Source of the DNA: Candidatus Sericytochromatia bacterium
Lineage (GTDB): Bacteria; Cyanobacteriota; Sericytochromatia; S15B-MN24; VGJW01
DNA: 64,000 nt
Reading direction: 5' to 3'
Assembly (NCBI GenBank): GCA_035285865.1
Contig: JAYKHS010000014.1
Location: forward strand, 96,001-160,000
Part shown: positions 5,508 to 37,758 of the stretch, one piece after another
Position numbering within the stretch: position 1 is the stretch's first letter
How the letters are laid out: each line of letters starts with the position of its first letter
The notes under the pieces: generated by a model
What the model saw: the letters and a program-made list of their open reading frames with translations, nothing else
Database searches by the model: none
Told to the model about the DNA's origin: nothing
Translations under genes and position numbers: made by a program

Positions 5508-6503
5508 ATGATCGAGGTTCAGAACCTGACCAAACGCTATGGTGACCGGACAGCCGTGTCCGGCATCAGCTTCACGGTGGCCAAGGGCGAGATCCTTGGT
5601 TTCCTGGGGCCCAATGGTGCGGGCAAGTCCACCACCATGAAGATGATTACCGGATTTCTGTCACCCTCTGAGGGCAAGGTCACGGTCGGTGGTTACGACA
5701 TGGCGGAACAGCCGCTCGAGGCCAAGGCCCTCATCGGCTACTTGCCTGAGGTCGTGCCGCTCTACCCCGATATGTCGGTCACGGATTACCTCTCGTTCGT
5801 CGCTTCCCTGAAGGGGTTGCCCGGCAACGAGATCGCCGATCGGGTCGACTACGTCGTTAAGCGGTGCTGGCTGGAGGAGTACCGCAACCGGCTTATCAGC
5901 CATCTCTCGAAGGGCTACAGGCAGCGTGTCGGTCTGGCTCAGGCGCTCATCCACAAGCCGCCCGTGCTGATTCTGGACGAGCCCACCAGCGGCCTCGATC
6001 CCCGTCAGATCAACGAGACGCGCGAACTCATCCGCCAACTTTCGGGTGATCACACCGTGATCCTGTCCACGCACATCCTGCCCGAGGTCCAGAACCTCTG
6101 CCATCGCGTCCTCATCATCAACAAGGGGCGTGAGGTTGCCGAGGATCGGCCCGAGAACCTGGAGAACAAGCTCAAGGGCAGCCAGACCGTCGTCATGGAG
6201 GTTGCCGGGCCCGAATCGGCCGTCCGGGAGGCGTTGCAGGCCGTGCCGGGCATCCGCCATCTGTCGGTCGTGCCCCGCACCAACCACGATGCCGGCATCC
6301 TGGACATCAAGGCAGAGACGGACCCGACGGACGCCGTGCGGGCTGGTCTGGCCAGCGCCGTAGTGGGTCGTGGCTGGGGCCTCCTCGAACTGCGCGCGGC
6401 CAGGCTCTCGCTCGAGGACATCTTCATCCGCCTGACCACGGCTGAATCGCCTGTGGCCGATGCGGCCTCGGGATCGGCTCTCTCGGCAACGTCCGGCACC
6501 TGA
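5508..6503 (+). CDS. ABC-2 transporter ATP-binding protein (GldA-like)
   Basis: Walker A GPNGAGKST, signature LSKGYRQR, Walker B LILDEPT, C-terminal SLEDIF. Confidence 0.92.
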   Translation: MIEVQNLTKRYGDRTAVSGISFTVAKGEILGFLGPNGAGKSTTMKMITGFLSPSEGKVTVGGYDMAEQPLEAKALIGYLPEVVPLYPDMSVTDYLSFVASLKGLPGNEIADRVDYVVKRCWLEEYRNRLISHLSKGYRQRVGLAQALIHKPPVLILDEPTSGLDPRQINETRELIRQLSGDHTVILSTHILPEVQNLCHRVLIINKGREVAEDRPENLENKLKGSQTVVMEVAGPESAVREALQAVPGIRHLSVVPRTNHDAGILDIKAETDPTDAVRAGLASAVVGRGWGLLELRAARLSLEDIFIRLTTAESPVADAASGSALSATSGT

Positions 6504-6522
6504 AGCACGGAGAAACTGCACC

Positions 6523-7236
6523 ATGTCCAAGATCCTTGCCATCGCCAAGCGTGAACTGCGCAGCTATTTCGTTTCGCCTCTGGCGTACGTCGTCGCAGCC
6601 TTCTTCATGGCCGCCGTCGGCTTCCTGTTCTTCGCCATTCTGACGTCGACGCGCGAAGCCTCGATGCGGACGTTGTTCCAGAACATGGCCGTGGTCTTCC
6701 TGTTGCTCGTGCCGGCGCTGACGATGCGTCTGCTGGCCGAGGAACGGAAGTCCGGAACGATCGAGTTGCTGATGACCAGCCCCGTCACCGACGAGGCGAT
6801 CGTCTTCGGCAAGTATCTCGCGACGGTCACCTACCTCGTCTTCCTGATGGCCCTGACACTCATCTTCCCCCTGTCCCTGGTCGCCATAGGCGGCAAGCCC
6901 GAGTGGCCGCTCATCTGGACCGGCTATCTGGCAACGACGCTGATGGGTGCTTCGCTGATGGCGATCGGCCTGATGGCCAGTTCCTTCACCAACAACGTCA
7001 TCGTGTCGGCGCTCGTGGCCTTCGTCCTCTCGCTCATCATCTGGCTGCTGCCGGCCATCGGCGGGACCTTCGGTTCCCCGATCTCCGAGGCTTTCCAATA
7101 CATGAGCATCATCAGTCACCTCGAGAACATGGCGCGGGGGGTCATCGACTCCTCCGACCTGCTGTACTACCTGTCCGTCATCGGGACCTGCCTGCTGGTC
7201 ACGGTGCGGTCCGTCAACGTCTACCACTGGAGATAA
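6523..7236 (+). CDS. ABC-2 permease (GldF-like)
   Basis: IAKRELRSYFVSPLAY, TMRLLAEERKSGTIELLMTSP, about 6 TM helices. Confidence 0.9.
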   Translation: MSKILAIAKRELRSYFVSPLAYVVAAFFMAAVGFLFFAILTSTREASMRTLFQNMAVVFLLLVPALTMRLLAEERKSGTIELLMTSPVTDEAIVFGKYLATVTYLVFLMALTLIFPLSLVAIGGKPEWPLIWTGYLATTLMGASLMAIGLMASSFTNNVIVSALVAFVLSLIIWLLPAIGGTFGSPISEAFQYMSIISHLENMARGVIDSSDLLYYLSVIGTCLLVTVRSVNVYHWR

Positions 7237-7241
7237 CGCCG

Positions 7242-8915
7242 ATGCAGACTTCCCCAAGTCCCGACGTCGAGCTCCAGGGATCTTCGTCCCGGATGCTTGA
7301 TCTCGCCATCAATGCCCTCGGCATCCTCGCCGTGCTGTGCATGGCGGGCAGCCTGATCATTTCCCGCTTCCTCGTCGACAAGGTGCCGGCCCAGACCGTC
7401 GGCTACCTGCAGAATGCCGGCTGGGCCTGCATCGGTCTCTACGTGCTCGGCATGGCGTGGCAGGGGCGAGATGCCATCAAGGCCTTCGTCTCGTCCGAGC
7501 GCGGCCAGTCCGGCAGCAACCTCGTGCTGCAGGTCCTGTTCGCCGTGCTGCTCGTGGGCTTCCTGAACTACCTCGGCACGCGCTACCACAAGCGATGGGA
7601 TTTCACCGAAAACAGGCAGTTCTCGCTCTCCGAGCAGACCGAGAAGATTCTGCGCGAGCTGCCCGGCAAGGTCACGCTCACGATGTTCGTGAGTCCGGCT
7701 GATCGTGCGCAGCAGGCCAACAAGGATCTGTTGGGCGAGTACGCTTATGCCGCTCCCGACAAGGTCGCCTTCAAGACCATCGACGCGGATCGTGATCCGA
7801 TCCAGGTGCGCAAGTACCTGCAGAGCCTCCCCGAGGCCCAGCGGTCCAAGGTTCTCGAGAACGGCACCATTCGCCTCGGTACCGTCGTCATCGAACATCA
7901 GGGCAACATCACCCCCATCACCGGCTTCAATGAGCAGGACTTCACGTCGGCCATCCTCAAGGCCACGCGGACCAGCCAGAAGACCATCTACTTCCTCGAT
8001 GGCCACGGTGAGCTCGACTACGACAACTTCGGTGCCGAGGGCATGACGCAGGTCAAGCAGTCTCTCGAGAAGCAGAACTACCGCATCGACCGTCTGCGCA
8101 TCGACACCCGCAAGGGTATCCCCGCCGACGCTGCGGCCCTGGTCGTTTCCGCCCCCAAGACGCCCTTTGCCAAGGAAGAGATTGCCAGCCTCGATGCCTA
8201 CATCGGCAAGGGCGGCAAGGTGTTGCTGAACCTGCGGCCGGGCGTGAACACCGCGCTTGAGCCTTGGCTCAAGGACTCGTTCGGCGTCAAGCCGGAGTCC
8301 GTGCTGGTCGTGGAGGAGAATCTGGCCAACACGATGGGCTACCAGCCCACGCTGCCCGCCGTAGTCAAGTACGAATTCCACGCCGTCACGCAGTCCTTCA
8401 GCAACTACCGCATCGTGACGGTCTTCCCGGAGTCCGGGGCCTTCACCGTCGCGGACAAGAAGCCTGAGGGCGTCACGGTCGACGTGCTCGCCAAGACTTC
8501 ATCCGAGGCCAAGGGCGTGCCGCTCAAGAACGGCAACCTTGCCGACGGCGAGCACCTGAAGGGTCCGCTCAACCTCGCGGTAGCGGTGTCCCGCAAGCTG
8601 CCCGGCGTCGAGGATGCGAGCGCATCCGTCAAGGTCGACCGCAACGGTCGCTTGATCGTGATGGCCGCACCCTACTTTGCGGTGAACGGTCTTCTCCAGC
8701 GCAACGCCAGCGTTGGCAACAGCGACTTCCTGCTGTCGGGCCTGAACTGGCTGGCCGAGGACGAAACGCTGGTCTCCATCTCGCCCAAGAGTCAGGAGAG
8801 CCGGACCGTCACCCTGCTGGGCTCGACCCAGCAGTCCCTGTTCTACGGAACGGTCGTCCTGCCCCCGCTGGCGCTGCTCGTACTGGGTGGTGTCGTGTGG
8901 TGGCGGAGGAGGTAA
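7242..8915 (+). CDS. GldG-family ABC auxiliary component
   Basis: N-terminal TMs, RWDFTENRQFSLSEQT, IYFLDGHGE, LNWLAEDE, C-terminal TM ending WWRRR. Confidence 0.88.
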   Translation: MQTSPSPDVELQGSSSRMLDLAINALGILAVLCMAGSLIISRFLVDKVPAQTVGYLQNAGWACIGLYVLGMAWQGRDAIKAFVSSERGQSGSNLVLQVLFAVLLVGFLNYLGTRYHKRWDFTENRQFSLSEQTEKILRELPGKVTLTMFVSPADRAQQANKDLLGEYAYAAPDKVAFKTIDADRDPIQVRKYLQSLPEAQRSKVLENGTIRLGTVVIEHQGNITPITGFNEQDFTSAILKATRTSQKTIYFLDGHGELDYDNFGAEGMTQVKQSLEKQNYRIDRLRIDTRKGIPADAAALVVSAPKTPFAKEEIASLDAYIGKGGKVLLNLRPGVNTALEPWLKDSFGVKPESVLVVEENLANTMGYQPTLPAVVKYEFHAVTQSFSNYRIVTVFPESGAFTVADKKPEGVTVDVLAKTSSEAKGVPLKNGNLADGEHLKGPLNLAVAVSRKLPGVEDASASVKVDRNGRLIVMAAPYFAVNGLLQRNASVGNSDFLLSGLNWLAEDETLVSISPKSQESRTVTLLGSTQQSLFYGTVVLPPLALLVLGGVVWWRRR

Positions 8916-8919
8916 GTTC

Positions 8920-9597
8920 ATGCAACGTTGGCGCAATACGCTCCTGCTCGGAGCACTCACGGCCGGCATCGCCGCCTATGTCTTCCTCGTGGAGAACAAG
9001 CGCGACTACACGCCGGGGCAGGAGGAGACCGTGGCGGTCTGGACGCTGTCCGATCGTCAGATGGAGGATATCCGGACCATCGAGGTCGTGGCTGGTGGCA
9101 AGTCCGTCCGTTACGTCCGCAAGGATCCCGTGCCGACTCCAAAGCCCAGCGCGGACGTCACGCCCGACCCCTTGGCCACGCCGCCGCAGGCCACCTGGCA
9201 TCAGGAGGGCAAGCTTGACCGCGGCCTGACCTACGAGTGGGACAACGCCTATACGGACATCAAGCGTCCTGTCGCGGTCCGGGTCGTCGACGAGGCACCC
9301 AAGGATCTGACCGAGTACGAACTGGGCTCTCCCAGCGTGGAGGTCCGTCTCCTGGATGCCAAAGGCAAGGTGGCGCGCGGTCTGCAGTTCGGCAAGAAGG
9401 CCATCTCGGGCCAGGGCAACTACGTCAAGGCCGAGGGCGAGCCCAAGGTCTATCTGATTGCCTCGCACAAGCTGGACTCTGTCCGCAAGCTGGTGGAGCA
9501 GCCGCCCGTGGCCTCGCCTGCACCGACTCCCGTGCCGACCCCGACCGCCTCGGCCTCTGCGGTGCCCGCCGCGACCACCGCGCCGGCCACCAAGTAG
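8920..9597 (+). CDS. DUF4340-like membrane-anchored protein
   Basis: N-terminal TM, DLTEYELGSP...LQFGKK..YVK..VYLI pattern; usual fourth gene of gldAFG-like operons. Confidence 0.7.
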   Translation: MQRWRNTLLLGALTAGIAAYVFLVENKRDYTPGQEETVAVWTLSDRQMEDIRTIEVVAGGKSVRYVRKDPVPTPKPSADVTPDPLATPPQATWHQEGKLDRGLTYEWDNAYTDIKRPVAVRVVDEAPKDLTEYELGSPSVEVRLLDAKGKVARGLQFGKKAISGQGNYVKAEGEPKVYLIASHKLDSVRKLVEQPPVASPAPTPVPTPTASASAVPAATTAPATK

Positions 9598-9746: not shown

Positions 9747-10778
9747 ATGTCGAAGCTCTGGACCCTGCTGCCCCTCGCGGCCGTCGCCCTTGTGGGCTGT
9801 GGCACGGCGAATCAGGTGGCCCCCAGCCGCTACGCCTATGCGCAGACGTATGCTGCGGCCCCCGTCGCCCAGACCGCCGGTATTCGTCTGGTGCTGAGCG
9901 AGGCTTCGGCCTATCGGACACAGGCCACCGTCGCCGAGGTCGCGTCGATTCGTCTGACCGTCACCCCTGCCTCCGGGGCTCCTGCGACCAAGACCGTGGC
10001 CAAGGGCGCGGATCTCGCGATGGACAACCTGACGCCCGGCAAGGCCGCCCTCAAGGTCGAGGCGCTCGATGCAGCCGCTCAGACCATTGGTGTCGTCGAG
10101 CAGGGCAACGTCGACCTGGTAGCAGGCCAGACGACGACCGTCAAGCTGACCCTCAAGTTGCAGCCGACCGTGGTTTCCGCGGCCGGGCTCGGCGTCGACC
10201 TGACTTTGGTTGATGGCGACGTCGTCTACACCCAGCCTTCCCCCGCACCCTCCACCAGCCCGACGACCCCGCCTGTCGGCGGCAATCTGCTGGACGAGGG
10301 CTTCGAGAACGGTCTTGGAGGCTTCACCGCCGCCTATGCCAAGCCTGCCTACCTCACGGACGTCACCGCCGGCACGGGCTGGAACAGTGCCGCCGCTGCC
10401 GCCCAGGTCGGCGCCAAGGGCGCGACGGCTGGTGGTGCCGATGGCAAGGTGACGGCTCCCGGTGCCTACACCCTGACGCTGACGGGTGCGCTCAATACCA
10501 GCAGTCTGGCCGCCCCCAAGATCAGCTTTGCTTACGGCAAATTCACGAAGCAGTACTACTTCAAGACCGCGACGTTCGCTGTCGAGGCCTCCACTGACAA
10601 CGGCGCCACCTGGACTGCAGTCTGGTCCGCCCCTGCCACCCAGCCCGCCTGGACCGCCGTGACGGCCGATCTGCCCCGTGCCGCTGCCGTCAAGATTCGG
10701 TTCAACTTCACGTATGACTACTACCTCGGCACCGATGGATTCGATGCCCCGGTACTCGATGCGGTGGTCGTGAAGTAG
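9747..10778 (+). CDS. lipoprotein: N-terminal beta-sandwich, Pro/Ser/Thr linker, C-terminal jelly-roll/MAM-like domain
   Basis: Lipobox VALVG|C. C-terminal 'LLDEGFENG...VEASTDNGATWT...VKIRFNF...LDAVVVK' is typical of MAM/cleaved-adhesin-like domains. Confidence 0.7.
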   Translation: MSKLWTLLPLAAVALVGCGTANQVAPSRYAYAQTYAAAPVAQTAGIRLVLSEASAYRTQATVAEVASIRLTVTPASGAPATKTVAKGADLAMDNLTPGKAALKVEALDAAAQTIGVVEQGNVDLVAGQTTTVKLTLKLQPTVVSAAGLGVDLTLVDGDVVYTQPSPAPSTSPTTPPVGGNLLDEGFENGLGGFTAAYAKPAYLTDVTAGTGWNSAAAAAQVGAKGATAGGADGKVTAPGAYTLTLTGALNTSSLAAPKISFAYGKFTKQYYFKTATFAVEASTDNGATWTAVWSAPATQPAWTAVTADLPRAAAVKIRFNFTYDYYLGTDGFDAPVLDAVVVK

Positions 10779-23071: not shown

Positions 23072-24046
23072 TCAGGCAGGGTTGCCTGAGGCCATGGCCT
23101 TGGTGGCGGCTCGGACGTGGTGGCCCATGTAGCGCGTGCAGGCCACGAGCGTGGTGCGTTCAGCGTCGGCCGATGGCGCGTCGGGCAGTTCCGGCCAGTT
23201 TGCTGCGGCCTCGCGGTCGCCCGTGGCCATCCGCTCCAGTGCTGCGGCTACGCGCGGCAAAACCTGTTCGTGGTCCGCATCCCTCACGCGCAGCAGGTCA
23301 AGGCCATAGTGTCCGGCCATCTCCAAGTGCCGGAGCGCAGCCTCGTAAGCGGAAAAGCGCTCGGCTGCGGCGGCCTGGCGTCCGGCACGCCACCAGCTCC
23401 ACTCCTGACGGAAGGCCCCCGCTTCCTGACGCCAGGCGACGAGGTCCCCATGCAGGATGTCGAAGGCCGCCGGCTCCTCTCCCGCACGGGTCCGCTCCAG
23501 CCCGGTCCGGAAGGCCTGCGCGAGGTCCCTGCCACCCTGCCGCAGGCGCGCGCCGAGCATGGAGCCGTAGTACCAGGGACCCAGCAACAGGGTGACGAGC
23601 ACGCCGCTCACCACCCCGACGAAGACAGCGATCATCCGGACGGGACCCGCGACCAGTTGGGGTTCGACGGGCATCTGGTACATGTACAGCGCCGAGAACA
23701 GGGCGACAGCCAGCGTCCCGAAACTCGCCCTGCGCCAGAGCACGAGGGACGCCGTCAGAAAGATCGCCAGGGCGAGCGGGCCTGCGGCCACGGGGCCGAG
23801 CGCCAGCAGCAGCGAGCCGATCAGGGCGCCCGCAAGGCTGCCGAGCAACTGCGAAACGGCCTCCTTGAGTCCCCCCGTGACCGTCGGCTGCACGCACATC
23901 ATCGCGACGAATCCTGCCGACAAGCCATCCTTGGGCAGGCTCGCGGGCAGCAGGCCCAGACTTGTCACGGCCACGGCCGCTGCAACACCCAGCTTGAATG
24001 GGTACACGAACCACAGGAGCCGATCGGGAATACTCAGGGTGACCAT
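23072..24046 (-). CDS. FUSC/aromatic acid exporter-like membrane protein (start 24046 or 24055)
   Basis: FKLGVAAAVA...AGFVAMMCVQPTV...LLGSLAGALIG; about 5 TMs followed by a helical cytoplasmic domain. Confidence 0.7.
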   Translation of the reverse strand: MVTLSIPDRLLWFVYPFKLGVAAAVAVTSLGLLPASLPKDGLSAGFVAMMCVQPTVTGGLKEAVSQLLGSLAGALIGSLLLALGPVAAGPLALAIFLTASLVLWRRASFGTLAVALFSALYMYQMPVEPQLVAGPVRMIAVFVGVVSGVLVTLLLGPWYYGSMLGARLRQGGRDLAQAFRTGLERTRAGEEPAAFDILHGDLVAWRQEAGAFRQEWSWWRAGRQAAAAERFSAYEAALRHLEMAGHYGLDLLRVRDADHEQVLPRVAAALERMATGDREAAANWPELPDAPSADAERTTLVACTRYMGHHVRAATKAMASGNPA

Positions 24047-24130
24047 GTCGCCCATCGTACCCGCCGGCCTGCGTCACGTCTGTGGTATAGTCGAGGCCTG
24101 TGGCTTTTGCGCTCTTTTTCCGGTGATGGC

Positions 24131-25993
24131 ATGACAGATCCCGCGCGCAGCGCGCTCATCGTCGATCATGGCTCCGTGTGGCAGGCTCTGCGCCAGCGAT
24201 TCGGTGCCGGTACCATCGATGACGACTTCGCGGTCGACCTGGTCGCCAACCTGCAGGAAAAGGTGGCCGAAATTGCTCCGGACAGCCGCTGCATCGTTCT
24301 GGGCGATTGGTCGGATCCCGAACTGGGCCAGCATGCCCGGATGTTTGCCCGCTGCGGTTTCGAGGTGGTCATGGACATGGCCGCCATCCCGGCTCCGGAG
24401 GGCGGTCGCTTCCGCGCGACTCTGGACGAGCACCTCGCCCGGCATCCGCAGGCCACGACCCTGATCCTCGCCACCACGGACGGCAGCCTCGCCGCCGACC
24501 TCGAGGCCCTGCGCCAGCAACAGCGCATCGTCCTGGTCTGGGGCATCCGCACGGCGACGCCGCAGGCGCTGTGCGAGGCCGCCACCAACTACGCCTTTCT
24601 GGACGAGATGCTCAGCGACGTCCTTGACCTGGCCCAGCAGGTGCCCTCCGAGCGCTCGCCCGCCCCGCCTGCACGTCCCGGCGTCAGGCCCGGGACCGGA
24701 CCCTTCAAGGGACGGCCCGAGGCAGACGAGGAAGGCCTCGGCCCGCGCGAGGCTGCAGGCGACCTGCGGGATCGCGGCGAGCATGTCGGCACCCTCGATG
24801 CCATCATCGTCTACGCCGATTACTACATGCGGGCCAATCGCTTCGACTTCCTGACCTTCGCCAAGTTCCTGGATTTCCTGCACCAGCGCGACCTCGTCGG
24901 CCATACGGATGCCGAACGCGAAATCTGGCTCAAGTCGGCCGTCGAGACGCCTTCGTTCCACATCGAGTCCGTCACGCTCGTCGACCAGCACACCCATGAG
25001 CCCAAGACCATCCGGCGCTTCCGGCTTGTCGGACAGGATGCCCGCGTGGACGAGGCCCGGCGCATGCTGGCCGAGATCCTGGCCTTCCTGTCCGGAACGC
25101 TCACGGATACCTTCAACCCCAGCTTCAGCAAGCTGCGCGACCATCTGCAGCAGCAGTTCCCGGCTTTGACGATGGATCGGATTCACGGCTGGCTCTCCTG
25201 GTACAAGGAGACGCGCGTCATCCTGTCCAAGGAAGTGCCGCACAAGAAGGATCCGTCCATCCGGGTCAAGCTGATCCGCCTGAACCCCGACCACTTCCTG
25301 ATCAAGCACCTCGCGGCCGGTCCGTACTTCGGCCCGGAGGAGACGCTCGTGTGTCTGCTGGATGCCTATCTGGTCGAGCATGACCATGAGTGGATGGCCG
25401 CCAGCAAGTTGCTCGAGCGGCTGGCGGACAAGCTCGTCCAGGACGGCCGTGCGCCGGTGGAGGCGCGTCGCGAGGCCAAGGAGGTGCTGGATGCGGCCAA
25501 GCAGGCCGGCCTTATCACCGTTTCCAAGCCTGCGGCCCGCAGCGAAACGCTTTCCGACGACACGGAAGCGGCTCCCGCTGCTCCCCCCCCGGCCAGTCAG
25601 GTCTACCTGTGCGACGACAAGGAGTGGGTCTGCGACATTCTCGATCGCCGGGATGACCTGATCCAGGCCATGCACGATGCCCTGCGGGGCCGTGTCTGGA
25701 TTGCCCGCAGCACGCTTCAGCGCGAGTTGCTGCCTCTCTTTGCAGAGGACAGCCGCCAGGAGAGCGAGGCCCGGCCGCACGAGCGCATCCACTTCTGGAT
25801 CGGTCTGATGACCTACCTGCGCCAGTTCGTGCCCCGGCAGGTTCCCAATCCCCGCGGAGGCACCACCCACGCGCTCGTCCTCAACCCGTCGAGCAAGGTC
25901 GTCCAGGCTGCCCTCGAGGACCTCGGCTATGACGACGAAGCCGAAGGCGATGCCGAGGACGAAGGGGATCCGGTCGCCGGCACCAGCATCTGA
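24131..25993 (+). CDS. degenerate NYN (LabA/DUF88-like) domain protein with C-terminal repeated winged-helix-like domains
   Basis: ALIVDHGSV...LGDWS...LILATTDGSLA..LEALRQQQRIVLVWG...QALCEAATNYAFLDE follows the NYN topology; downstream helix plus beta-hairpin repeats. Confidence 0.6.
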   Translation: MTDPARSALIVDHGSVWQALRQRFGAGTIDDDFAVDLVANLQEKVAEIAPDSRCIVLGDWSDPELGQHARMFARCGFEVVMDMAAIPAPEGGRFRATLDEHLARHPQATTLILATTDGSLAADLEALRQQQRIVLVWGIRTATPQALCEAATNYAFLDEMLSDVLDLAQQVPSERSPAPPARPGVRPGTGPFKGRPEADEEGLGPREAAGDLRDRGEHVGTLDAIIVYADYYMRANRFDFLTFAKFLDFLHQRDLVGHTDAEREIWLKSAVETPSFHIESVTLVDQHTHEPKTIRRFRLVGQDARVDEARRMLAEILAFLSGTLTDTFNPSFSKLRDHLQQQFPALTMDRIHGWLSWYKETRVILSKEVPHKKDPSIRVKLIRLNPDHFLIKHLAAGPYFGPEETLVCLLDAYLVEHDHEWMAASKLLERLADKLVQDGRAPVEARREAKEVLDAAKQAGLITVSKPAARSETLSDDTEAAPAAPPPASQVYLCDDKEWVCDILDRRDDLIQAMHDALRGRVWIARSTLQRELLPLFAEDSRQESEARPHERIHFWIGLMTYLRQFVPRQVPNPRGGTTHALVLNPSSKVVQAALEDLGYDDEAEGDAEDEGDPVAGTSI

Positions 25994-29502: not shown

Positions 29503-31455
29503 ATGGCCAAGTCGCGACACGGAACCCTGTCCCGCCTCGGGCTGGCAAGCCTTGCCGCCGGCGCCGCCCTGCAACTGCTGCTGGCATGCAGCACCGGAGC
29601 AGGTCTCGTCCCGTCGGTCCGGTCCGCTGCCGCCGGTACCGCGACGTTGCGCCTGGTCTGGCCCGGGACGGACCGCAACATCCAGGCTGCCTCGTTGCTT
29701 GCGCCCTCATGGCGCCTGCGTGTCCTCCTGCCGGGAGGCAAGGAAACCCTGCTGCCCGTGACGATGGGATCGGCCGGCGATACGGCAGACATCCAAGGGC
29801 TGGAACCCGGGGAAACCGTTCTGGTGGTCCTCGAGGCCCTGGTTGAGGGCGTGCCGGTGCCTGGGGGTTCACATCGCGCGGTGCTGGCCCTCGAACCCGG
29901 TTCGACGACTGTGGCGACTTTCACCCCGTCCGGCATGGCGGTCGGCGAGGTCTACGAGACCCTGCTCAGGCGCACCGATGCGGAAACCCTGCTGGCCAGC
30001 CTGCCCGTGGCCTCGATCTCGTCTTTCGTCCGGACGGTCCATGATGCGCCTCCGACCTTGCCGACTTGGGGGCAGGTCGACGGCAAGGCTCTGGCCGAGG
30101 CCATCATCGTGCGCAACGGCGCCTTGCCGGGCGAACCGCTTGTCTTTCGCACGGGTGAAGCCACGGTCGACATCCGCATTCGCGGCATCAGTCCGGTCCT
30201 GCCCGTCACGATGGCTGTCCTCGATCCGGCCTCGGTCCCCCAGGGGGCGGCACGCGTCAGTTTCGGCGGGCCGGACCCCCTGCATCGAATCCGGGGGGTT
30301 CGCCCCGGTTCGTGGCCGGTGCATGTCCGGGTGCATGACCTGCCGGTCGAGATGGCCACCGTGTCGGTCGCGGCGGGTGGTACGGCGCGCGTCGACATCG
30401 ATCTTTCCCCGTGGCAAGCGGGGCCTCCCCTGCCCGTGCCCCTCGGTGGCGCCTGTGTGTCGGCCAATGGCGGCCGCATCTACTTGGTGGGCGGCCTGAC
30501 CAAGGAACGCGAGGCGACGGATTCGGTCTGGATGCTGGATACGCTCGCCACGACGCCCGGGTGGGTCGCCCGTCGACCTGCAACGCTGCCGCGGGAAGGT
30601 GCTGCTGCCGGCTGGGTAGGCGGACGCCTCGTCGTGGCTGGTGGCGTGACGCCGAATGCACAGGGTTTCCCTGTGCCTACCCGCCGTGTCGAAGCTTACG
30701 ATCCGGTGGCGGACACCTGGACCGCCCTGCCGGACATGCCGTTCGACACCTCCATCCTCACGCCTGCTGCGGGCTACGATGCCCAGGGTGTCAGCAGCCT
30801 CCTCGGGGGCGTCCTGCTCGATGCCCTCTGGATCCATGGGGCACGTGGCCTGGATGTCCTGCCCACCCCCATCCTGCGTGCCTTGCCCGCTGCTGCGGGG
30901 GCAAACTGGTTCACGCCTCCGGTGACGGGTGCGGCCTCTCCGCGCGTCCAGGCGGCGTCCATCTCCGGGGACGGTCAATGGTGGCTCATCGGTGGGCGCA
31001 TGCTGCCGCCGGTACCGTTCCTGACCGGTTCGGGCCAGGCCTTCGAGGCCGGGGCTCCCCGCGAGGATGCCGAGGTGCTCGATGCGCGGGGCACCGTACC
31101 GCGCTGGCGCAGTGTGGGCCAACCGCTGGTCGAGGCGCGTGCGGAGGCGGCCGGGGTCGTCCAGAACGGCCGCCTGCTGGTTCTGGGTGGCGTGGCCTCG
31201 GCCCGCAGGACGCTGGGTTCGGTAGAACGACTCGATCCCGGCGGGGGGCCGTGGCGTCCCGTCGGAGCGCTGCGACAACCGAGGGCCGCGCTGGGAGCCG
31301 CGATTGCCGGGGGCAAGGTCTGGGCCATCGGTGGCCTCGCCGGCAGACAAACCCTCTACTACGAGAATCCGCTCGCTGGTGGCGTCGACCTCGAGGCCTC
31401 GATCATCGCCACGGACACTGTCGAGTTTGCCCCGGTCGGGGAGTTGGGCTTGTGA
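29503..31455 (+). CDS. Kelch-repeat lipoprotein
   Basis: Lipobox LLLA|C; N-terminal beta-sandwich domains; Kelch repeats (IYLVGG, LVVAGG...YDPVADTW, LLVLGG, VWAIGG). Confidence 0.8.
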   Translation: MAKSRHGTLSRLGLASLAAGAALQLLLACSTGAGLVPSVRSAAAGTATLRLVWPGTDRNIQAASLLAPSWRLRVLLPGGKETLLPVTMGSAGDTADIQGLEPGETVLVVLEALVEGVPVPGGSHRAVLALEPGSTTVATFTPSGMAVGEVYETLLRRTDAETLLASLPVASISSFVRTVHDAPPTLPTWGQVDGKALAEAIIVRNGALPGEPLVFRTGEATVDIRIRGISPVLPVTMAVLDPASVPQGAARVSFGGPDPLHRIRGVRPGSWPVHVRVHDLPVEMATVSVAAGGTARVDIDLSPWQAGPPLPVPLGGACVSANGGRIYLVGGLTKEREATDSVWMLDTLATTPGWVARRPATLPREGAAAGWVGGRLVVAGGVTPNAQGFPVPTRRVEAYDPVADTWTALPDMPFDTSILTPAAGYDAQGVSSLLGGVLLDALWIHGARGLDVLPTPILRALPAAAGANWFTPPVTGAASPRVQAASISGDGQWWLIGGRMLPPVPFLTGSGQAFEAGAPREDAEVLDARGTVPRWRSVGQPLVEARAEAAGVVQNGRLLVLGGVASARRTLGSVERLDPGGGPWRPVGALRQPRAALGAAIAGGKVWAIGGLAGRQTLYYENPLAGGVDLEASIIATDTVEFAPVGELGL

Positions 31456-32111
31456 CGGGACGCTTGCCCATGGCCTTGTGTACCGCGGCCCTGATTCCCC
31501 TTGCCTGCAGGCCACCGAGTTCTGCGACCGACAGCCGGCAGATCGTCATCACGCCGGCCCCCGGGCCGACCCCGGTCATCGGTGCCTCGAACGGAACGTC
31601 CGGCAGTGCCACGCCGACCCCGGGACCCGCTCCGACAGATCCCGGTCGCACGCCGCCACCGACACCTGAACCGACGCGTCAGGTGAATCTCTGGATCGAA
31701 GTCCTGGTCGACGACACCCCCGGCGAAACCCGGCTCGTCGTGGTTCCTGCCGATGCTACCTCGGCTTCGACGCGCATCCAGGCCCTCTCGGCGACCGACC
31801 TGAGCGTCGATTGGGCCTTCGAGGCACCCGGGCCCGTGCCGGACGAGCGCTCGGGCAACATGAAGCCTGCAGCGACCACCGGCCTTGCCGCGACGCTCCT
31901 CGAGAGCATGTATCCCGGCGTCGGCACGGCGTCGGTCGCCCTCCGCTCGGACGCGGGGACGATCGGCACGGCGACGGCAACGACGTCGCTGGCTTCGGGC
32001 CGAAACAACGTGCTGCGCTTCGCGCTTTCGTCATCCGGGGAGATGCGCGTCGATCTGAGCGGGGATCTGCCGTGGCCAACTCCGGATGTCCGCCTGACGG
32101 TGCGCCCATGA
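31452..32111 (+). CDS. hypothetical lipoprotein with Pro/Thr linker and a single beta-rich domain
   Basis: GTGA overlap with the upstream stop; IPLA|C lipobox-like; ATGA overlap with the downstream gene. Confidence 0.65.
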   Translation: MTGRLPMALCTAALIPLACRPPSSATDSRQIVITPAPGPTPVIGASNGTSGSATPTPGPAPTDPGRTPPPTPEPTRQVNLWIEVLVDDTPGETRLVVVPADATSASTRIQALSATDLSVDWAFEAPGPVPDERSGNMKPAATTGLAATLLESMYPGVGTASVALRSDAGTIGTATATTSLASGRNNVLRFALSSSGEMRVDLSGDLPWPTPDVRLTVRP

Positions 32112-33685
32112 AGTTGTTTGCAAACGTCGGCCGGCCCGCCCTGCGCGGCCTGGTCTTCCTCGTCGGGTGCGTCTGGGTGGTGGCCTGCACGGCTCCGGCC
32201 AACTTGCCGACGGCAGGCGTCGGGGGAGCGGCCGTGCGCGCGGATGAGGGGGCTCCTGCGGGTGCAACGCTGCGCATCGTGGTTGCCCTGCCTCCGGCCC
32301 TGCAGGGACCGGAGGCCGAGCGGGACACGATGGCCCTGTCCGGGTTCATCGATCGCATCGAGGCCGAGATTCGGGGGACCAACGTGCCCGGTGGGCGCCA
32401 CACGGCAACCTTCACGCGCAAGGACTTCCGGGGCAAGGCTGTCGTCCTGGTCTTCGGGCGCCTCCTGCCTGGGCAGGTCACCGTCACGCTGACCTTTCTG
32501 GACCGCAGCGACAGATTGTTGGGCAAGGCTGTCAGCGATCTCATCGAGGTCGGTCCCGCCGTGCCCGCGGAGGCCACCCTTTCCTTGATCCCCGAAGAGG
32601 GTTCGCTGAGCGTGCCCTTCGATCCGGTTACCGTCGAACCGACGACCGCCGTCAGGCTCGATGCGCGGATCCAGCCTTTCGAACAGGGGCAGTGGACTCA
32701 GGTGCCGCCTTTGTTGCTGCCCCGTACCGGGGGCAGCCTCGTCCTGCACGATGGAGCGCTGATGGCCGTGCTCGGTGCACCGAGTCCTTCGGTGGAGCGG
32801 CGTGATCCGGTCACGGGCCACTGGCGACTGGTACCTCTGCCGTCGTCCTACAGCGTGCTCGTGCGGGACGCTGCCATCCAACCCATCGCCGGAAGCCTTC
32901 ACGTGTTCGGAGGTGACAGCTTTGGCGTGGATCAACCGTTCGGTTCCGGTTTGGAGATGACGCGGATTCGGCCCGAGGCGGCTTTGCCGGATCGCGTCCA
33001 GAACGTATCCCGATCCTCGGTTGCGGTTGTCCCGCAACTCGAGGGCGACCTTGCGCGTTCCGGGGCCGCGAGCTTCCTGTGGCAGGATGAGGTCGTGCTG
33101 GTCGGCGGGCGTGGGGAGCACCCGCCCGAGACGGGACTGCCGCGACACGGCTGGGTCCTTCCGGTTCACGGCAGCGCCCACGCTGCATCGCGGGGAACGT
33201 GGCGTCGCTTGGCCGGCCTGCAGTCTCCGAGAGCCGATCTGGCGGGGGCGACCGTGGACGGGCGCATGGTGGCGGTCGGCGGACGGACGCTGTCCGGAGC
33301 CACGGGGAAGGACAGGCTCCTCGGATTGCCCTGGTACGATGCCGCGACGGCGCAGTGGACAGCCGTCAGCACCGTGGAGACCTACGATCCGGTCGAAGAG
33401 CGGTGGCAGTCCGCGCCAGCCTTGCCCGAGGCACGCTGGGACCTGGCGGCCGTCGGGCATGCCGGTCGTGTCTGGGTCAGCGGTGGGCGAAACGCTTCGG
33501 GGCAACCCACGGCCACGGTATGGAGCTGGGCACCGGGCGAGGCGTCATGGCGTCCAGAGCCTTCGATGACGCGTGTCCGGGCCAGTCACGGCATGGCGGT
33601 GGCTCCCGGGGGCCTGCTGATGGTGGCCGGGGGAGAGGGGCTGGATGCCTTCACGTCCCGGCATGTCGAGGTGATGAGGCCATGA
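32108..33685 (+). CDS. Kelch-repeat lipoprotein
   Basis: Lipobox VVA|C; Kelch repeats (LHVFGG, VVLVGG, MVAVGG...YDPVEERW, VWVSGG, LMVAGG). Confidence 0.8.
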   Translation: MKLFANVGRPALRGLVFLVGCVWVVACTAPANLPTAGVGGAAVRADEGAPAGATLRIVVALPPALQGPEAERDTMALSGFIDRIEAEIRGTNVPGGRHTATFTRKDFRGKAVVLVFGRLLPGQVTVTLTFLDRSDRLLGKAVSDLIEVGPAVPAEATLSLIPEEGSLSVPFDPVTVEPTTAVRLDARIQPFEQGQWTQVPPLLLPRTGGSLVLHDGALMAVLGAPSPSVERRDPVTGHWRLVPLPSSYSVLVRDAAIQPIAGSLHVFGGDSFGVDQPFGSGLEMTRIRPEAALPDRVQNVSRSSVAVVPQLEGDLARSGAASFLWQDEVVLVGGRGEHPPETGLPRHGWVLPVHGSAHAASRGTWRRLAGLQSPRADLAGATVDGRMVAVGGRTLSGATGKDRLLGLPWYDAATAQWTAVSTVETYDPVEERWQSAPALPEARWDLAAVGHAGRVWVSGGRNASGQPTATVWSWAPGEASWRPEPSMTRVRASHGMAVAPGGLLMVAGGEGLDAFTSRHVEVMRP

Positions 33686-35103
33686 TGCGGGGAGTGTCCG
33701 TTGCGGTGATGGTGTCGGCCGCGTCCGTTCTCCTCTCCGCTTGCCAGGCCGTGTCGCCATCGACCGTGTCCGCGCTGCCCTTGCCCATCATCGGCTTGGG
33801 AACCGCCGCCGATGCGCGCGACCCGGTGCTGGCGTGGCGCGCCGAGCGCGCCGAGCCGCCCCAGGGCCGTGTCCTTGCGGGAGAGTTGCTGGTGGGTATC
33901 TCCCAGCCGGGAGTCCTGCCAGCGGCGCTCGAGGGGTTGTCCGTCCGTCGCCTGCATGGCACGCGCTTCCTGATGGTCCGGACGTCGCCTGCAGCTGCGG
34001 ATGATCTCGGCAGCCGCCTGCTGGCCGATCCGGACGTTCGCTGGGTGACGCGCCATCGTGCTGCGACGCCGGCAGCGGAGCCCTACTACGATGGGGATCC
34101 CTTGACGGCCTACAATCCGGCCATGCGCCTGATGAAGGTGCAAGAGGCGCTGGTGTCCATCCTCGATGCTTCCCGCGAGTGGCGCACCTCGTGCGTGGCC
34201 GTGCTGGATTCGGGTGTCCAGCGCCAGCACCCCGATCTCGTGGGCCATGTCCTCGCAGGCTTCCAGACGCACGCAGCCTTCGATCCCGACACGCCGCCGC
34301 CATCGGGAGATTTCGACGACTTCCGTGGCTTCCACGGCACGCGCGTCGCGGGCGTGATCTCGGGCGCCGTCGCGAACGACACCGGCGCTGCCGGGATTGC
34401 GCCGGGGTGCATCATCCTGCCGGTGATGGTCGCCGACCCGTCCACGGGGGAAATGTCGACGTTCGCCATCCTGTCCGGGATGTGGCTGGCTGCTCACCTG
34501 AATCGCCCCGAGGCCCCCTTCGGCTGGATGCAGGGTGTCGGGGACGGCACGCCGGTTCACGTGGTGTCGATGAGCCTCGGTTTCGAGGGGGTGGAGTCGC
34601 GTATCGCGGCTTTCGACGAAATGGCCGGCCTCCTGCGCCAGCGCGGGATTCTCGTGGTCGCCAGTGCCGGCAACGCAGCCGGGGGCGTGACGGCTCCCGC
34701 GAACAGCCCGGGAGTCCTTGCCGTCGGGGCCACGGTGCCACCACCCGACGTCGAGGCGCTTGCACCCTACAGCAACCATGGGGATGGCCTCGACTTCGTG
34801 GCACCCGGTTCGGGCATCTGGACGACCGACGGGGCCAACACGGCGACGGGTTTGCCGGACTATGCGAAGGCTTATGCCCGCTTCACCGGCACTTCCGCGT
34901 CCGCCCCCATGGTGGCGGCCGTGGCAGCCCTGATCCGTGGCCGTTATGCTGAAGAACTGGCGGGTCATCCGGCGCCGGCGGACTGGATCGAGTCTCGCTT
35001 GCGCGAGAGCGCCGTGGACCTGGGCGAGCCGGGCTGGGACCCGTACTTCGGATGGGGCCGGCCGGACGCCCTGCGGGCGGTGACGGGGCCGTTCGTCCCC
35101 TGA
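33682..35103 (+). CDS. S8 (subtilisin-like) serine peptidase, lipoprotein
   Basis: Lipobox LLSA|C; catalytic VAVLDSG, HGTRVAG and GTSASAP; oxyanion ASAGN; DLGEPGWDPYFGWG. Confidence 0.92.
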   Translation: MMRGVSVAVMVSAASVLLSACQAVSPSTVSALPLPIIGLGTAADARDPVLAWRAERAEPPQGRVLAGELLVGISQPGVLPAALEGLSVRRLHGTRFLMVRTSPAAADDLGSRLLADPDVRWVTRHRAATPAAEPYYDGDPLTAYNPAMRLMKVQEALVSILDASREWRTSCVAVLDSGVQRQHPDLVGHVLAGFQTHAAFDPDTPPPSGDFDDFRGFHGTRVAGVISGAVANDTGAAGIAPGCIILPVMVADPSTGEMSTFAILSGMWLAAHLNRPEAPFGWMQGVGDGTPVHVVSMSLGFEGVESRIAAFDEMAGLLRQRGILVVASAGNAAGGVTAPANSPGVLAVGATVPPPDVEALAPYSNHGDGLDFVAPGSGIWTTDGANTATGLPDYAKAYARFTGTSASAPMVAAVAALIRGRYAEELAGHPAPADWIESRLRESAVDLGEPGWDPYFGWGRPDALRAVTGPFVP

Positions 35104-35163: not shown

Positions 35164-35775
35164 ATGCATCCTGAATCCGGTCACGACCTCGGCGAGAGCA
35201 TCGAGCGCCTCGCACGCCGCCGCCGCCTCTTCACCGTCGCGATGCTCGTGATGCTCCTGACGGCTCTGCTGGGTACGTCCATCTACCCCTACATGATGGC
35301 GGACGGTCCTGCTCCGTCGCCTTCGGCGGGGGCTACTGCGGCGGATCCCTTCAAGGAACTCGAGGCCATCGTTCGGGCTCATCCCCGCGATGTCGAGGCC
35401 CTCACGGAGTTGGGCAATCGCTACTACGATGCCGAGCGCTATGGCGACGCCGAGGCCATGTACCGCAAGGTCCTGGCCGTGACGCCGGGCAATCCCTCCG
35501 TGACGACGGATCTGGGCACGGCGCTCTTCTACCAGAAGAAGACGCTCGAGGCGATCGCCGCATGGCGGTCCGTTCTGGAGACGCATCCGCGACAGGCTCA
35601 GGCTCGGGTCAACCTTGGGCTTGCCTACCACAGCCTCGGGCAGACGCCCAAGGCCATCCGGGAGTGGGAAGTGGCCCGCGAGACGGCGACGGACGACAAC
35701 GTCCGCAAGACCGCGGAGCAGTTCCTGGCCCAGGTCCGGCCCGCAGCGGCAACATCCTCGGCCCAGCCCGGATAA
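35164..35775 (+). CDS. membrane-anchored TPR protein
   Basis: One TM helix followed by three TPRs (ALTELGNRYY, VTTDLGTALF, ARVNLGLAYH). Confidence 0.85.
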   Translation: MHPESGHDLGESIERLARRRRLFTVAMLVMLLTALLGTSIYPYMMADGPAPSPSAGATAADPFKELEAIVRAHPRDVEALTELGNRYYDAERYGDAEAMYRKVLAVTPGNPSVTTDLGTALFYQKKTLEAIAAWRSVLETHPRQAQARVNLGLAYHSLGQTPKAIREWEVARETATDDNVRKTAEQFLAQVRPAAATSSAQPG

Positions 35776-35830
35776 GCCGCCTTCCTGCCGGCGTCATCGG
35801 CCCTCAACATGGAGCGGGCACGGTACGTTC

Positions 35831-36829
35831 GTGTTCAGGCCTGAAGCTTCTCCGGGTAATTGCCCGCGTGTCGTCGCAGCGCTCTTCGCCGCGATGACGG
35901 TGGCTTCCTGCTGCCCCGGCATCGCGGCGCCTGTCGCGACGGGAGGGGCTGAGGAGGGAACCGATTCGGAAGCCGAGGTTGTCAGGGTCGAACCCGTGCG
36001 TGACGTCGGCATGGGGCAGCTGGTGCCGACAGCGGGGCCTGACGACGAGCCTGCCCTGCTCGCCAGCGGGGAAGGCCGGGTCGTGCTCGCCGATCGGAAG
36101 GGGACGATGCAGCTTGATTGGCCCGACCCTGCCGAATTCCCCCACAGGGCCGGGGTCGTGTCGGCCGTGGCGTGGGATCGCGACGGCACGCTCTGGTTGG
36201 CGGGCTCGGCTGGACTGACACGCAATCGCCCGCCCGAGGCAGGGGAGGCCTGGGCGTGGAGTCTGCCCGATGGCCGCAGGCCTTCGGTCCAGGCTCTCGT
36301 GGCCGCCGATGATGGCCTGCTGTTCGCGGCTGTCGATCACGGCGTCCTGCGCTTCGAGCCGGCGACGCGGCAGGTCCGCTGGCTCGCGGGTGGCCCCATG
36401 CCCGGCTTGACGGATGGCGAGGGCCACGACGCTGCCTTCCGGGAGCCCGAGGGCCTGTTGCTGCACGAAGACGGCCTGCTGGTCGCCGATGCCGGCAACC
36501 ACGCGCTGCGCACGGTTTTGCGATCGGGCAGGACGGCGCTGCTGCTGGGGGGCAGGCCCGGATTCATCGACGGCCCGGCCGGGCGCGCCCGGCTGCGGCA
36601 GCCTCATGGGCTCTGGCGGCATCCGCGGTGGGGCGTGCTGGTTTGCGATACGGGGAACCATGCCTTGCGCCGGCTCGATGGGCAGGGCCTGACGACCCTT
36701 GCGGGGGACGGCATGCCGGGCCGGGTTCCCGGACCGCTGCCGGATGTGCGCCTGATTGCACCTGTCGGATTGGCCGGGGACTGGCTGCTCGGGTCCGGGG
36801 GGCGACTCTGGCGGTGGGTGCCGGCATGA
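35831..36829 (+). CDS. NHL-repeat beta-propeller protein, probable lipoprotein (start uncertain)
   Basis: DGEGHDAAFREPEGL, VADAGNHALR, DGPAGRARLRQPHGL, VCDTGNHALR; TVAS|C lipobox-like. Confidence 0.75.
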   Translation: MFRPEASPGNCPRVVAALFAAMTVASCCPGIAAPVATGGAEEGTDSEAEVVRVEPVRDVGMGQLVPTAGPDDEPALLASGEGRVVLADRKGTMQLDWPDPAEFPHRAGVVSAVAWDRDGTLWLAGSAGLTRNRPPEAGEAWAWSLPDGRRPSVQALVAADDGLLFAAVDHGVLRFEPATRQVRWLAGGPMPGLTDGEGHDAAFREPEGLLLHEDGLLVADAGNHALRTVLRSGRTALLLGGRPGFIDGPAGRARLRQPHGLWRHPRWGVLVCDTGNHALRRLDGQGLTTLAGDGMPGRVPGPLPDVRLIAPVGLAGDWLLGSGGRLWRWVPA

Positions 36830-37758
36830 TGCGCCTCGCGCGTCGTGCCGGCGCGCTGGCCCTCTGGCCGTTCGTCCTCGCGGCCTGTCCCGGTTCAGGT
36901 AGCCCCACGAGCGCATCATCTGCTGCGGTCGCTCCCCCATCGGCGGGGGCTGCGCCCTTGGTCCTGCCGGAGGTGGCCACGACGGTGCATCTCTTGCTTG
37001 AGGGCCTGGTCGCGCCCGCTGGGCTTGTCCGGATGCCCGAGGGTCTGTACGTCAGTGACGAGGCCACGGATCGGGTCTGGTTGCAGCCCTTGCCCGCGGG
37101 TGCCGCCGTCCCGATTCCCGGACCCGAATCCGGACTCGACGGACCATCGGCGCTTGCTGGGGACGAGACAGGCAACCTTTTCGTCGCGGAGCGAAGGGGG
37201 CGCCGGGTGGTCTGCCGGGACCCGGGTGGTCGCTGGATCACGGTGCTCGGCGGCGGGGACGTGCCCCCGGGCGAGGCGCCTGTCCGGGCCACGGACCTCG
37301 CGCTGGAAGACCCGGGGGCTCTCGCGGTGGATGATGCGGGCAGCCTGTGGGTCCTCGACGCCGGCTGGCGCATGCTGGTCAGGCGTGGGGCCGATGGTCG
37401 CGCCACGGCCTGGTCGGCTCCGGGCAGCGCACCGGCGGCACTTGCCGCCCATGCGGATGGCAGCTTGCTGGTTCTCGATCCGCTGACCGGGGTGCTCTAC
37501 CGCGGCCGTCCGGGGAGCTGGAGCGTCGCGGCGACCGGGCTGTCGCGCGCCGTGGGCGTGCTGGTCCATCCCCGATATCCGTGGGTCGTCCTCGAGGCCG
37601 GTGGAGCCTTGCTGCTCGGTCCGGACGGTGAGCGCCTCGAGGTTGCAGGCAGCCCACGCCCGGTTGCGGGGGCGTGGATGGACCCGTTGGGTTGGGCCGT
37701 GGCGGATGCTGCGCGGGGGGGCGTCCTGCTGCAGCAACCCCGGACGGGGGCGCGTTAG
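36826..37758 (+). CDS. NHL/SMP-30-type beta-propeller lipoprotein
   Basis: ATGA-coupled; lipobox VLAA|C; repeats LYVSDEATDRV, LDGPSALAGDETGNLFVAE, PGALAVDDAGSLWVLD. Confidence 0.72.
   Translation: MMRLARRAGALALWPFVLAACPGSGSPTSASSAAVAPPSAGAAPLVLPEVATTVHLLLEGLVAPAGLVRMPEGLYVSDEATDRVWLQPLPAGAAVPIPGPESGLDGPSALAGDETGNLFVAERRGRRVVCRDPGGRWITVLGGGDVPPGEAPVRATDLALEDPGALAVDDAGSLWVLDAGWRMLVRRGADGRATAWSAPGSAPAALAAHADGSLLVLDPLTGVLYRGRPGSWSVAATGLSRAVGVLVHPRYPWVVLEAGGALLLGPDGERLEVAGSPRPVAGAWMDPLGWAVADAARGGVLLQQPRTGAR

Follow-up and report, generated by a model that had tools for sequence, protein, structure and literature searches.

A conserved lipoprotein operon of Sericytochromatia with a transthyretin-like domain family and a candidate route to protease-driven strand exchange

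Four lipoprotein genes, here named A to D, and a gene for a protease of the S8 (subtilase) family lie in a 64,000-nucleotide stretch of DNA from Candidatus Sericytochromatia bacterium (contig JAYKHS010000014.1 of assembly GCA_035285865.1), called the window below. The source organism is an uncultured, non-photosynthetic relative of cyanobacteria. An original prediction proposed that the four lipoproteins share an N-terminal domain (N-domain) with an arginine-containing motif and that they might form a surface filament analogous to the type V pili of Bacteroidota, with the S8 enzyme as maturase. The feature is real, and would be a known mechanism in a new variant that here probably builds short defined chains rather than a long pilus. 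A check of open reading frames (ORFs) located all five genes where they had first been placed. Their features, in window coordinates, are as follows.

29503..31455, + strand: gene A, a lipoprotein of 650 residues (lipidated Cys29) with an N-domain, a probably helical segment, a second transthyretin-like domain and a Kelch propeller
29635..29661, + strand: strand 1 of A, the candidate anchor strand, from profile alignment
29674..29688, + strand: loop motif R58-N-I-Q-A62 of A, from the alignment of A orthologues
30154..30405, + strand: second transthyretin-like domain of A, from Pfam CarboxypepD_reg (E 0.039) and an alignment of 18 orthologues
31452..32111, + strand: gene B, a small lipoprotein of 219 residues (GTG start, Cys19) with a Pro/Thr linker and a diverged N-domain
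31770..31784, + strand: loop motif T-R-I-Q-A of B, its Arg shifted by one place towards the Ala relative to A and C
32037..32108, + strand: tail of B, two strand-like segments, the first of the donor type G-x-[ML]-x-V-x-L, from sequence and orthologue comparison
32108..33685, + strand: gene C, a lipoprotein of 525 residues (Cys27) with an N-domain, a lone strand and a Kelch propeller
32321..32335, + strand: loop motif R72-D-T-M-A76 of C
32648..32668, + strand: lone amphipathic strand of C directly before its Kelch propeller, of presumed donor role, found by eye in 19-row and 33-row alignments
33682..35103, + strand: S8 subtilase of 473 residues, itself a lipoprotein (Cys21)
34207, 34333 and 34894, + strand: S8 catalytic residues D176, H218 and S405
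9747..10778, + strand: gene D, a lipoprotein of 343 residues (Cys18) with an N-domain, a donor strand, a Pro/Thr linker and a choice-of-anchor-J-like payload
9912..9926, + strand: loop motif Y56-R-T-Q-A60 of D, in a low-confidence loop of the model
10185..10217, + strand: donor strand of D, of the type G-x-[LV]-x-[AV]-x-[VIL]-x-[ILVF]-x-D-G, not placed by the full-length model

A lipobox is present in A, B, C and D, as predicted, and also in S8. The A/B, B/C and C/S8 junctions are each 4-nt overlaps of stop and start codons, which confirms the proposed linkage of these four genes. Pfam repeats bear out the Kelch payloads of A and C, and B has no Pfam match. The helical segment of A is a probable one, judged from its sequence. 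The S8 gene is intact, as claimed. Its product matches Peptidase_S8 (PF00082) at E 2e-39 and 136 bits against a cut-off of 21.8, and D176, H218, S405 and the oxyanion residue N331 are invariant in 16 orthologues. The payload of D had been called MAM-like; it has no Pfam MAM match and instead resembles choice-of-anchor J below the cut-off (NCBIfam, E 6.6e-5). No promoter or terminator signal was found for the operon, and the window has no Rfam match. The one RNA run examined contains fragments of B and S8 only, too little to speak for expression. One of its short contigs skips positions 31720-31765, a stretch in which the B loop before the motif is 14 residues longer than in two same-genus orthologues.

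The relationship among the N-domains emerges from profiles, as pairwise phmmer comparisons of the four give no cross-match at E < 10. In a set of 25,818 ORFs, a profile of D homologues from which A, B and C were held out gives E 1e-6 for C, 0.88 for A and 3.8 for B. When distant homologues of the A subfamily are added, A reaches 1.2e-4 and C 1.6e-7 in the same set, the score of A being partly circular because these homologues were found with A as query. By these searches A, C and D are members of one domain family, and to that extent the proposed common N-domain stands. B is a probable member. A profile-profile comparison places it at E 0.0036 with a probability of 9%, with motif and strands in register, and Atlas models put it in the same fold class at template modelling (TM) scores of 0.44-0.62, below the bar for naming. 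Two Mfa_like_1 clusters are among the Atlas models that resemble B. The look-alike domains in Atlas clusters are mostly from Myxococcota, and one Atlas match labelled TdpA_C gave no lead in the literature.

Among 153 stored proteins, 107 have a single N-terminal match to the domain, and 103 were kept after two near-copies of D and two repeat-type proteins lacking the motif were dropped. A loose lipobox occurs in 97 of the 107, and payloads across the family include Kelch, NHL, EF-hand and others. The source genome (83% complete) carries about 20 ORFs at E < 0.1, 13 of which are training sequences. A 58-row profile has matches in 37 of 37 Sericytochromatia genomes, many of which supplied training rows, with 1 to 20 matches each among the best 20 candidates scored. 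Other Cyanobacteriota yield weak matches in 2 of 164 genomes. The nearest named homologues of D belong to Ca. Sericytochromatia, and the 22 taxon-named matches of the domain search are Sericytochromatia or unassigned, in a named-genome survey that covered Cyanobacteriota. PF13620 matches 9 of the 58 family members weakly. The pilin families P_gingi_FimA, Mfa_like_1 and Mfa2 match none of the 58 members and nothing in the source genome at its 83% completeness; controls in Bacteroides were matched. No description of the family was found in the literature, in a search that did not cover most subscription papers.

The original prediction gave the common motif as R-x(1-2)-[QM]-A. A conserved motif does occupy the loop after strand 1, but that pattern fits only 25 of the 103 homologues. 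The motif is better written [RYF]-x-[VTLI]-[QLM]-A, with R in 46, Y in 29 and F in 24 sequences at the first place, any residue at the second, V, T, L or I in 96 at the third, Q in 56, L in 30 and M in 8 at the fourth, and A in 86 at the last. Nor is there a single Arg column, since Arg stands four places before Ala in A and C and three in B and D. The strict motif occurs in 71 of the 103 lipid-proximal domains (an upper estimate), compared with 1 of 199 internal repeats from 35 long proteins. As a general release signal for lipoproteins the motif was rejected, with 13 occurrences among 251 other lipoproteins of the genome against 11.3 expected. The motif is therefore tied to the lipid-proximal domain, and the comparison with internal repeats argues that these are not ordinary stalk domains. 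Gene A contains its own control, a second transthyretin-like domain whose first strand is followed by a short turn and which lacks the motif. Two repeat-type proteins, P0056 and P0149, have a similar first strand without the motif.

The motif sits in a loop of 13-25 residues modelled at low confidence. Neither the absence of a common fold nor a buried or unconserved motif, either of which would have refuted the original prediction, was found; the motif is exposed and conserved. In A orthologues, whose loops carry R-x-[LTV]-[QL], Arg fills the first place of the motif in 28 of 31 rows, the other three being unaligned, and the Ala place can also hold Tyr, Gln, Gly, Leu, Trp or Val. The sequence R-I-Q-A is invariant in B orthologues (3/3), and same-genus orthologues of C have R-T-[AT]-L-A. 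The proposed cleavage after Arg, as in FimA and Mfa proteins, does not suit the family, as Arg is missing from all three places that precede the aliphatic residue in 40 of the 103 homologues. In 31 of the 103 there is neither Arg nor Lys in the six places up to Ala.

Structure prediction was carried out on D only, with A and C assigned to the fold by profile and B more loosely. AlphaFold2 predicts seven strands for D residues 35-168, with a core predicted local distance difference test (pLDDT) score of about 90, a loop after strand 1 below 50, and the extra strand and tail unplaced. Structural matches of this model are transthyretin-like. The best is 1nkg at Z 8.8 (root mean square deviation 2.2, 82 residues aligned), tied with Bacteroidia adhesins and pilins 3liu at 8.7 (3.3, 96) and 3up6 at 8.0 (2.8, 94), then 5cag at 7.9, FimA 6jzk at 7.7 (3.5, 107) and Mfa3 5nf4 at 7.3, although Z values of 7.3-8.8 may reflect merely a common arrangement. 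The transthyretin-like 5aq0 scores 7.2. The suggested structural comparison thus gives a transthyretin-like N-domain for D, with type V pilin N-domains among its best matches, and the same fold is predicted for the N-domains of A and C and tentatively for B. A search of the sequences of solved structures with the family profile was uninformative (best E 0.013). When D is folded without strand 1, strands 4 and 7 are left unpaired, so that strand 1 would be the middle strand of a sheet.

A few residues past the domain lies a second element, overlooked in the original prediction. This is a donor-like strand of the pattern G-x-[LV]-x-[AV]-x-[VIL]-x-[ILVF]-x-D-G, which occurs in 66 of the 103 homologues compared with 2 of 392 downstream windows and 78 of 20,600 shuffles. 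Its commonest linker is 7 long. The strand resembles strand 1 (G-x-[LVI]-x-[VL]-x-[FVLI]) and is often internal in the chain rather than C-terminal. It is present in 59 of 64 homologues that have Thr or Lys after the motif Ala and in 7 of 37 that do not, a link inflated by kinship. D carries both acceptor and donor, and is the sole subunit of the window that could in principle polymerise with itself.

The removal of the region before the motif, which had been proposed as a structural test, yields a weakly supported donor/acceptor complex and no pairing within the monomer. In the predicted complex of D(61-140) with D(136-165), the interface score ipSAE is 0.47 compared with 0.07 for the best control. 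The partner has a pLDDT of 58-59, the acceptor one of 75 versus 62-63 with unrelated partners, and contacts agree between runs to at least 90%. The mark set for such scores is reached by 116 of 157 solved pairs and 2 of 215 mismatched pairs, and a pass for D may reflect likeness to solved folds. A donor that folds back into its own groove is absent from the D monomer model. When the truncated model was used in a fold search, the alignment was confined to residues 1-82 and is silent on the donor.

Donor-like endings also occur on lipoproteins that lack the domain. In the source genome, 4 of 252 such lipoproteins end in G-x-[LVIA]-x-[VIML]-x-[VIL], and all four directly precede a domain gene that has no donor, the pattern having been chosen after these were viewed. 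In 20 loci of other genomes this ending is found in 8 of 363 ORFs, five of them directly upstream of a domain gene, two further upstream on the same strand and one on the opposite strand. The tail of B falls short of the strict donor pattern ending in D-G, and its donor role is putative. Several relatives have other arrangements. Minimal members of 136-193 residues at L126 (G015:C39), L131 (G008:C117) and L031:809-1390 consist of a signal peptide, a single domain and a donor-like strand at the end of the chain, and are the best candidates for stalk subunits. A-like genes without a Kelch propeller at L040, L046, L049 and L051:8404-9900 close with a Pro/Thr linker followed by a last strand, and each adjoins another domain gene. 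The lipoprotein at L057 (G000:C2:31042-33048) has the domain without the loop motif and a donor-like strand after it, and is a possible uncleavable anchor of the FimB/Mfa2 type.

Gene order around the protease is conserved. Among 19 loci surrounding the best S8 matches, 17 have the arrangement A-C-S8, one has C-S8 with the remainder past the fetched edge, and one has neither A nor C. In a held-out set of 14 further loci picked by S8 score alone, 13 have A-C-S8 and the last has a domain gene, C and S8 at a contig edge. None of six lower-scoring control S8 loci has a domain gene, and one has a Kelch gene. As to the proposed count of co-occurrence in relatives, S8 stands beside A and C across the order, and the operon-type S8 was not found in the genomes of other orders.

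The orthologues suggest a division of roles. Orthologues of A lie upstream of C and S8, and A has no visible donor strand, which makes it a candidate tip (acceptor-only) subunit. Orthologues of C have no N-domain match in 13 of the 14 held-out loci. These domain-less forms consist of a signal peptide, a Pro/Thr/Gly linker, one amphipathic strand and the propeller. The lone strand, which we take from the topology of Kelch propellers to lie outside the propeller, resembles strand 1 of A by eye, and C is a candidate anchor or donor that would plug into A. In the source genus, C keeps its own domain and motif, and B, with its donor-like tail, is inserted before it. B is found only in this genus (3 of 41 genomes) and may be a genus-specific adaptor.

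The operon S8 proteins group apart from 22 other S8 proteins in a quick tree (Shimodaira-Hasegawa approximate likelihood-ratio support 99), a grouping to be expected for rows chosen by similarity. Members of this clade (E < 1e-100) occur in 21 of 27 genomes of the order and in 0 of 20 genomes of other orders that carry the domain, and the domain itself occurs in 37 of 37. On this distribution the operon S8 was rejected as a class-wide maturase. The claim that it matures the whole family is not supported, because it was not found in 6 of the 27 genomes of the order or in any of the 20 from other orders.

The nearly constant Arg (28 of 31 rows) and the variable Ala place of A orthologues, set beside the R-X-aliphatic-Z consensus of the S8 enzyme site-1 protease (SKI-1/S1P), as given in the accessible text of PMC10194167, suggest that a subtilase site, in which Arg would be P4 and the cut would precede Ala, describes the motif better than a gingipain or signal peptidase site. 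Loops of A orthologues fit that consensus except where Thr replaces the aliphatic residue. The likeness is one of motif only, and Tyr or Phe replaces Arg in about half of the members of the wider family. The cut in A would fall between Gln61 and Ala62. A search for acidic pocket residues specific to the S8 clade found eight clade-typical columns, none assignable to a P4 pocket. That the operon S8 nicks A is a tentative proposal, quite possible and somewhat short of probable, and the enzyme is a candidate maturase or cargo protease.

These features suggest a class-wide plug-and-socket system for surface lipoproteins, similar to type V pili and built on a single transthyretin-like domain. The acceptor would start out as a lipoprotein, with its first strand tied to the lipid and placed in the middle of a three-stranded sheet. 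A protease would nick the loop behind this strand, with [RYF]-x-[VTLI]-[QLM]|A as the likeliest site, and a look-alike donor strand of another lipoprotein would then displace strand 1 and hold the released payload. In this operon, C would offer its lone strand to the tip subunit A to give a short defined chain, with B as an extra, genus-specific link. The lipid-anchored S8 protease would be part of the unit and the likeliest enzyme to nick A. We consider strand exchange after proteolysis, in the manner of type V pili, to be the probable mechanism for this operon, with some reserve. A long filament is not expected from these genes, as A has no donor strand, and a long fibre is unlikely. A bolder version is doubtful. 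It holds that A, C and S8, as tip, anchor and dedicated maturase, make up the minimal, self-contained kit of a general Sericytochromatia display system, in which a subtilase resembling site-1 protease cuts R-x-aliphatic-[QL]|A and dozens of payloads per genome are clipped onto anchors or fibres by a strand of 8-12 residues, in a single-domain form independent of Bacteroidia.

Several observations weigh against strand exchange at this locus. Cleavage and assembly are putative here, and the counts of motif and donor are inflated because the profile used for retrieval contained both. The highest structural Z (8.8) belongs to a domain that is not a pilin, and a Foldseek search of the PDB with the D model gave no hit at E 0.001. 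The D complex lies in a weak zone of the score, since values up to 0.60 include 18 solved pairs together with both passing mismatches, and its two chains come from one gene. In the truncated D monomer the donor gained confidence (pLDDT about 77) and did not pair, which its short linker would explain, an explanation short of proof. Strict donor-tail genes are missing directly upstream in 15 of 20 loci. One clade-level S8 (L097) has neither A nor C beside it, and in two triads (L141 and L142) A lacks a domain match and the motif while the lone strand of C and the S8 gene are retained. The second of these (G000:C30:169000-177000) is the other A-C-S8 triad of the source genome, and its A loop is short.

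Type V pili (FimA/FimB/FimC-E and Mfa1/Mfa2/Mfa3-5 of P. gingivalis) offer the closest parallel. As described in the accessible parts of two sources (PMC13655056; bioRxiv 10.64898/2026.07.16.738973), their subunits are lipoprotein precursors with a transthyretin-like domain, carry a conserved site in the β1-β2 loop, and fall into donor-bearing and donor-less (tip) classes. The anchor strand β1 of Mfa1 forms a sheet with β4 and β7, and an anchor strand that has been nicked keeps its position until it is displaced by a donor (PMC13655056, accessible text). The corresponding sheet is predicted here for D, and the loop motif is conserved here as a putative site of cleavage. If nicked strands behave alike in both systems, the last link of a chain would be kept on the membrane.

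There are also clear differences. The accessible text of PMC13655056 presents type V pili as unique to Bacteroidia, whereas the host here is a member of the Sericytochromatia. Type V subunits are β-sandwiches of an N-terminal and a C-terminal domain. In contrast, B, C and D have one acceptor domain followed by a linker or payload, and the second domain of A lies about 75 residues away from the first. The donor is a short strand that directly follows the domain, closes the chain or stands by itself ahead of a payload, and payloads also ride on donor-bearing subunits. The type V site is Arg|Ala, while the motif here has no Arg directly before the conserved Ala, and an S8 protease is encoded alongside. 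No gingipain match was found, in a search whose positive control gave none either.

Dentilisin of Treponema denticola resembles the operon in another respect. The prcB-prcA-prtP genes form a single operon that encodes lipoproteins, the last of them an acylated S8 protease; cleavage of PrcA depends on PrtP, and the products form a membrane complex (PMC8167434, accessible text). It is a precedent for an acylated S8 enzyme needed to process an operon partner. The partners here are Kelch proteins with an acceptor domain and a lone strand, whereas PrcA and PrcB are given as unique to oral spirochetes, and strand exchange is not mentioned in the accessible text of PMC8167434. The S8 protein is not a PrtP orthologue by NF033595, which it matches with 53.2 bits against a cut-off of 300, the level of a generic subtilase. 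An NCBIfam scan of A, B and C named no PrcA or PrcB family, with no direct comparison made.

Strand exchange could be real while the operon S8 is a cargo or partner to which the propellers of A and C feed substrates, as in dentilisin, with a C11 lipoprotein or another S8 enzyme nicking loops throughout the genome. The restricted occurrence of the S8 clade against the universal domain speaks for such an arrangement, as does a 99% complete genome (G013) with 18 domain matches and no S8 match at clade level. Other cutters are at hand, with C11 proteases in 45 of 47 class genomes and 24 S8 lipoproteins in the source genome, and S8 is retained where A has lost the motif. However, the P4-like Arg is found in 28 of 31 A rows compared with 46 of 103 sequences family-wide, as expected if A were tuned to its neighbour. 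The 31 motifs without Arg or Lys would be hard for an Arg-specific C11 enzyme to cut. We regard this arrangement as rather unlikely. The sole clostripain-family (C11) lipoprotein of the source genome, a rival maturase, is at G000:C5:45775-47127.

Explanations that dispense with strand exchange fare less well. The motif could be a release (shedding) site or a binding motif in a self-contained domain whose extra strands bind some other partner, such as S8 or an export factor. Domains of the transthyretin-like kind often serve as stalks, support from the complex is weak, and the motif, with its small residue at -1 and aliphatic residue at -3, recalls a signal peptidase I site. Yet a cut in the loop would strip a core strand and leave strands 4 and 7 unpaired, the donor-like strands resemble strand 1 and are found in neighbouring genes upstream, and the motif keeps to the domain rather than to lipoproteins at large. 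A signal peptidase site also fits poorly with Tyr, Gln, Leu, Trp or Val at the Ala place of A orthologues. This explanation seems quite improbable. Still harder to credit is that these are ordinary immunoglobulin-like stalk domains, the motif being a structural turn and the pilin likeness chance. Its merits are that no sequence match to type V pilin families was found and that the four domains do not match one another pairwise. It is largely refuted by the near absence of the motif from internal repeats and from the second domain of A, and the place of the motif in a low-confidence loop of 13-25 residues also speaks against it. The internal repeats of PF13620 (carboxypeptidase regulatory-like, transthyretin-like) share the fold class with the N-domain and, unlike it, lack the long loop.

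Lipoprotein strand exchange driven by a protease is presented in PMC13655056 as limited to Bacteroidia. If the proposed exchange occurs, the mechanism would be wider and more modular than pili. A one-domain form would exist, many times over in each genome, in the sister lineage of cyanobacteria, as a way of hanging interchangeable payloads on the envelope. Candidates for the enzyme, its substrate, the cut site and the partner all come from the conserved operon, which makes the idea testable even though the organism is uncultured.

Further genes of the source genome may be noted. A second transthyretin-like subfamily of 9 ORFs has a similar first strand and loop and large payloads, with motif variants in several members; its loci include G000:C30:851-17671, C17:55682-59346, and C28:190876-192366 and 200447-202906. 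In the window, positions 35164-37758 after S8 encode a TPR membrane protein and two NHL-repeat proteins that have lipoprotein-like starts and no N-domain match. A 958-residue ORF at 23117-25993 has an NYN domain below the cut-off as its sole Pfam match. Positions 5508-9597, before D, hold likely ABC transporter genes with GldG-like (ABC_transp_aux) and DUF4340 proteins, and a DUF4340 neighbour of D is seen in same-genus loci only.

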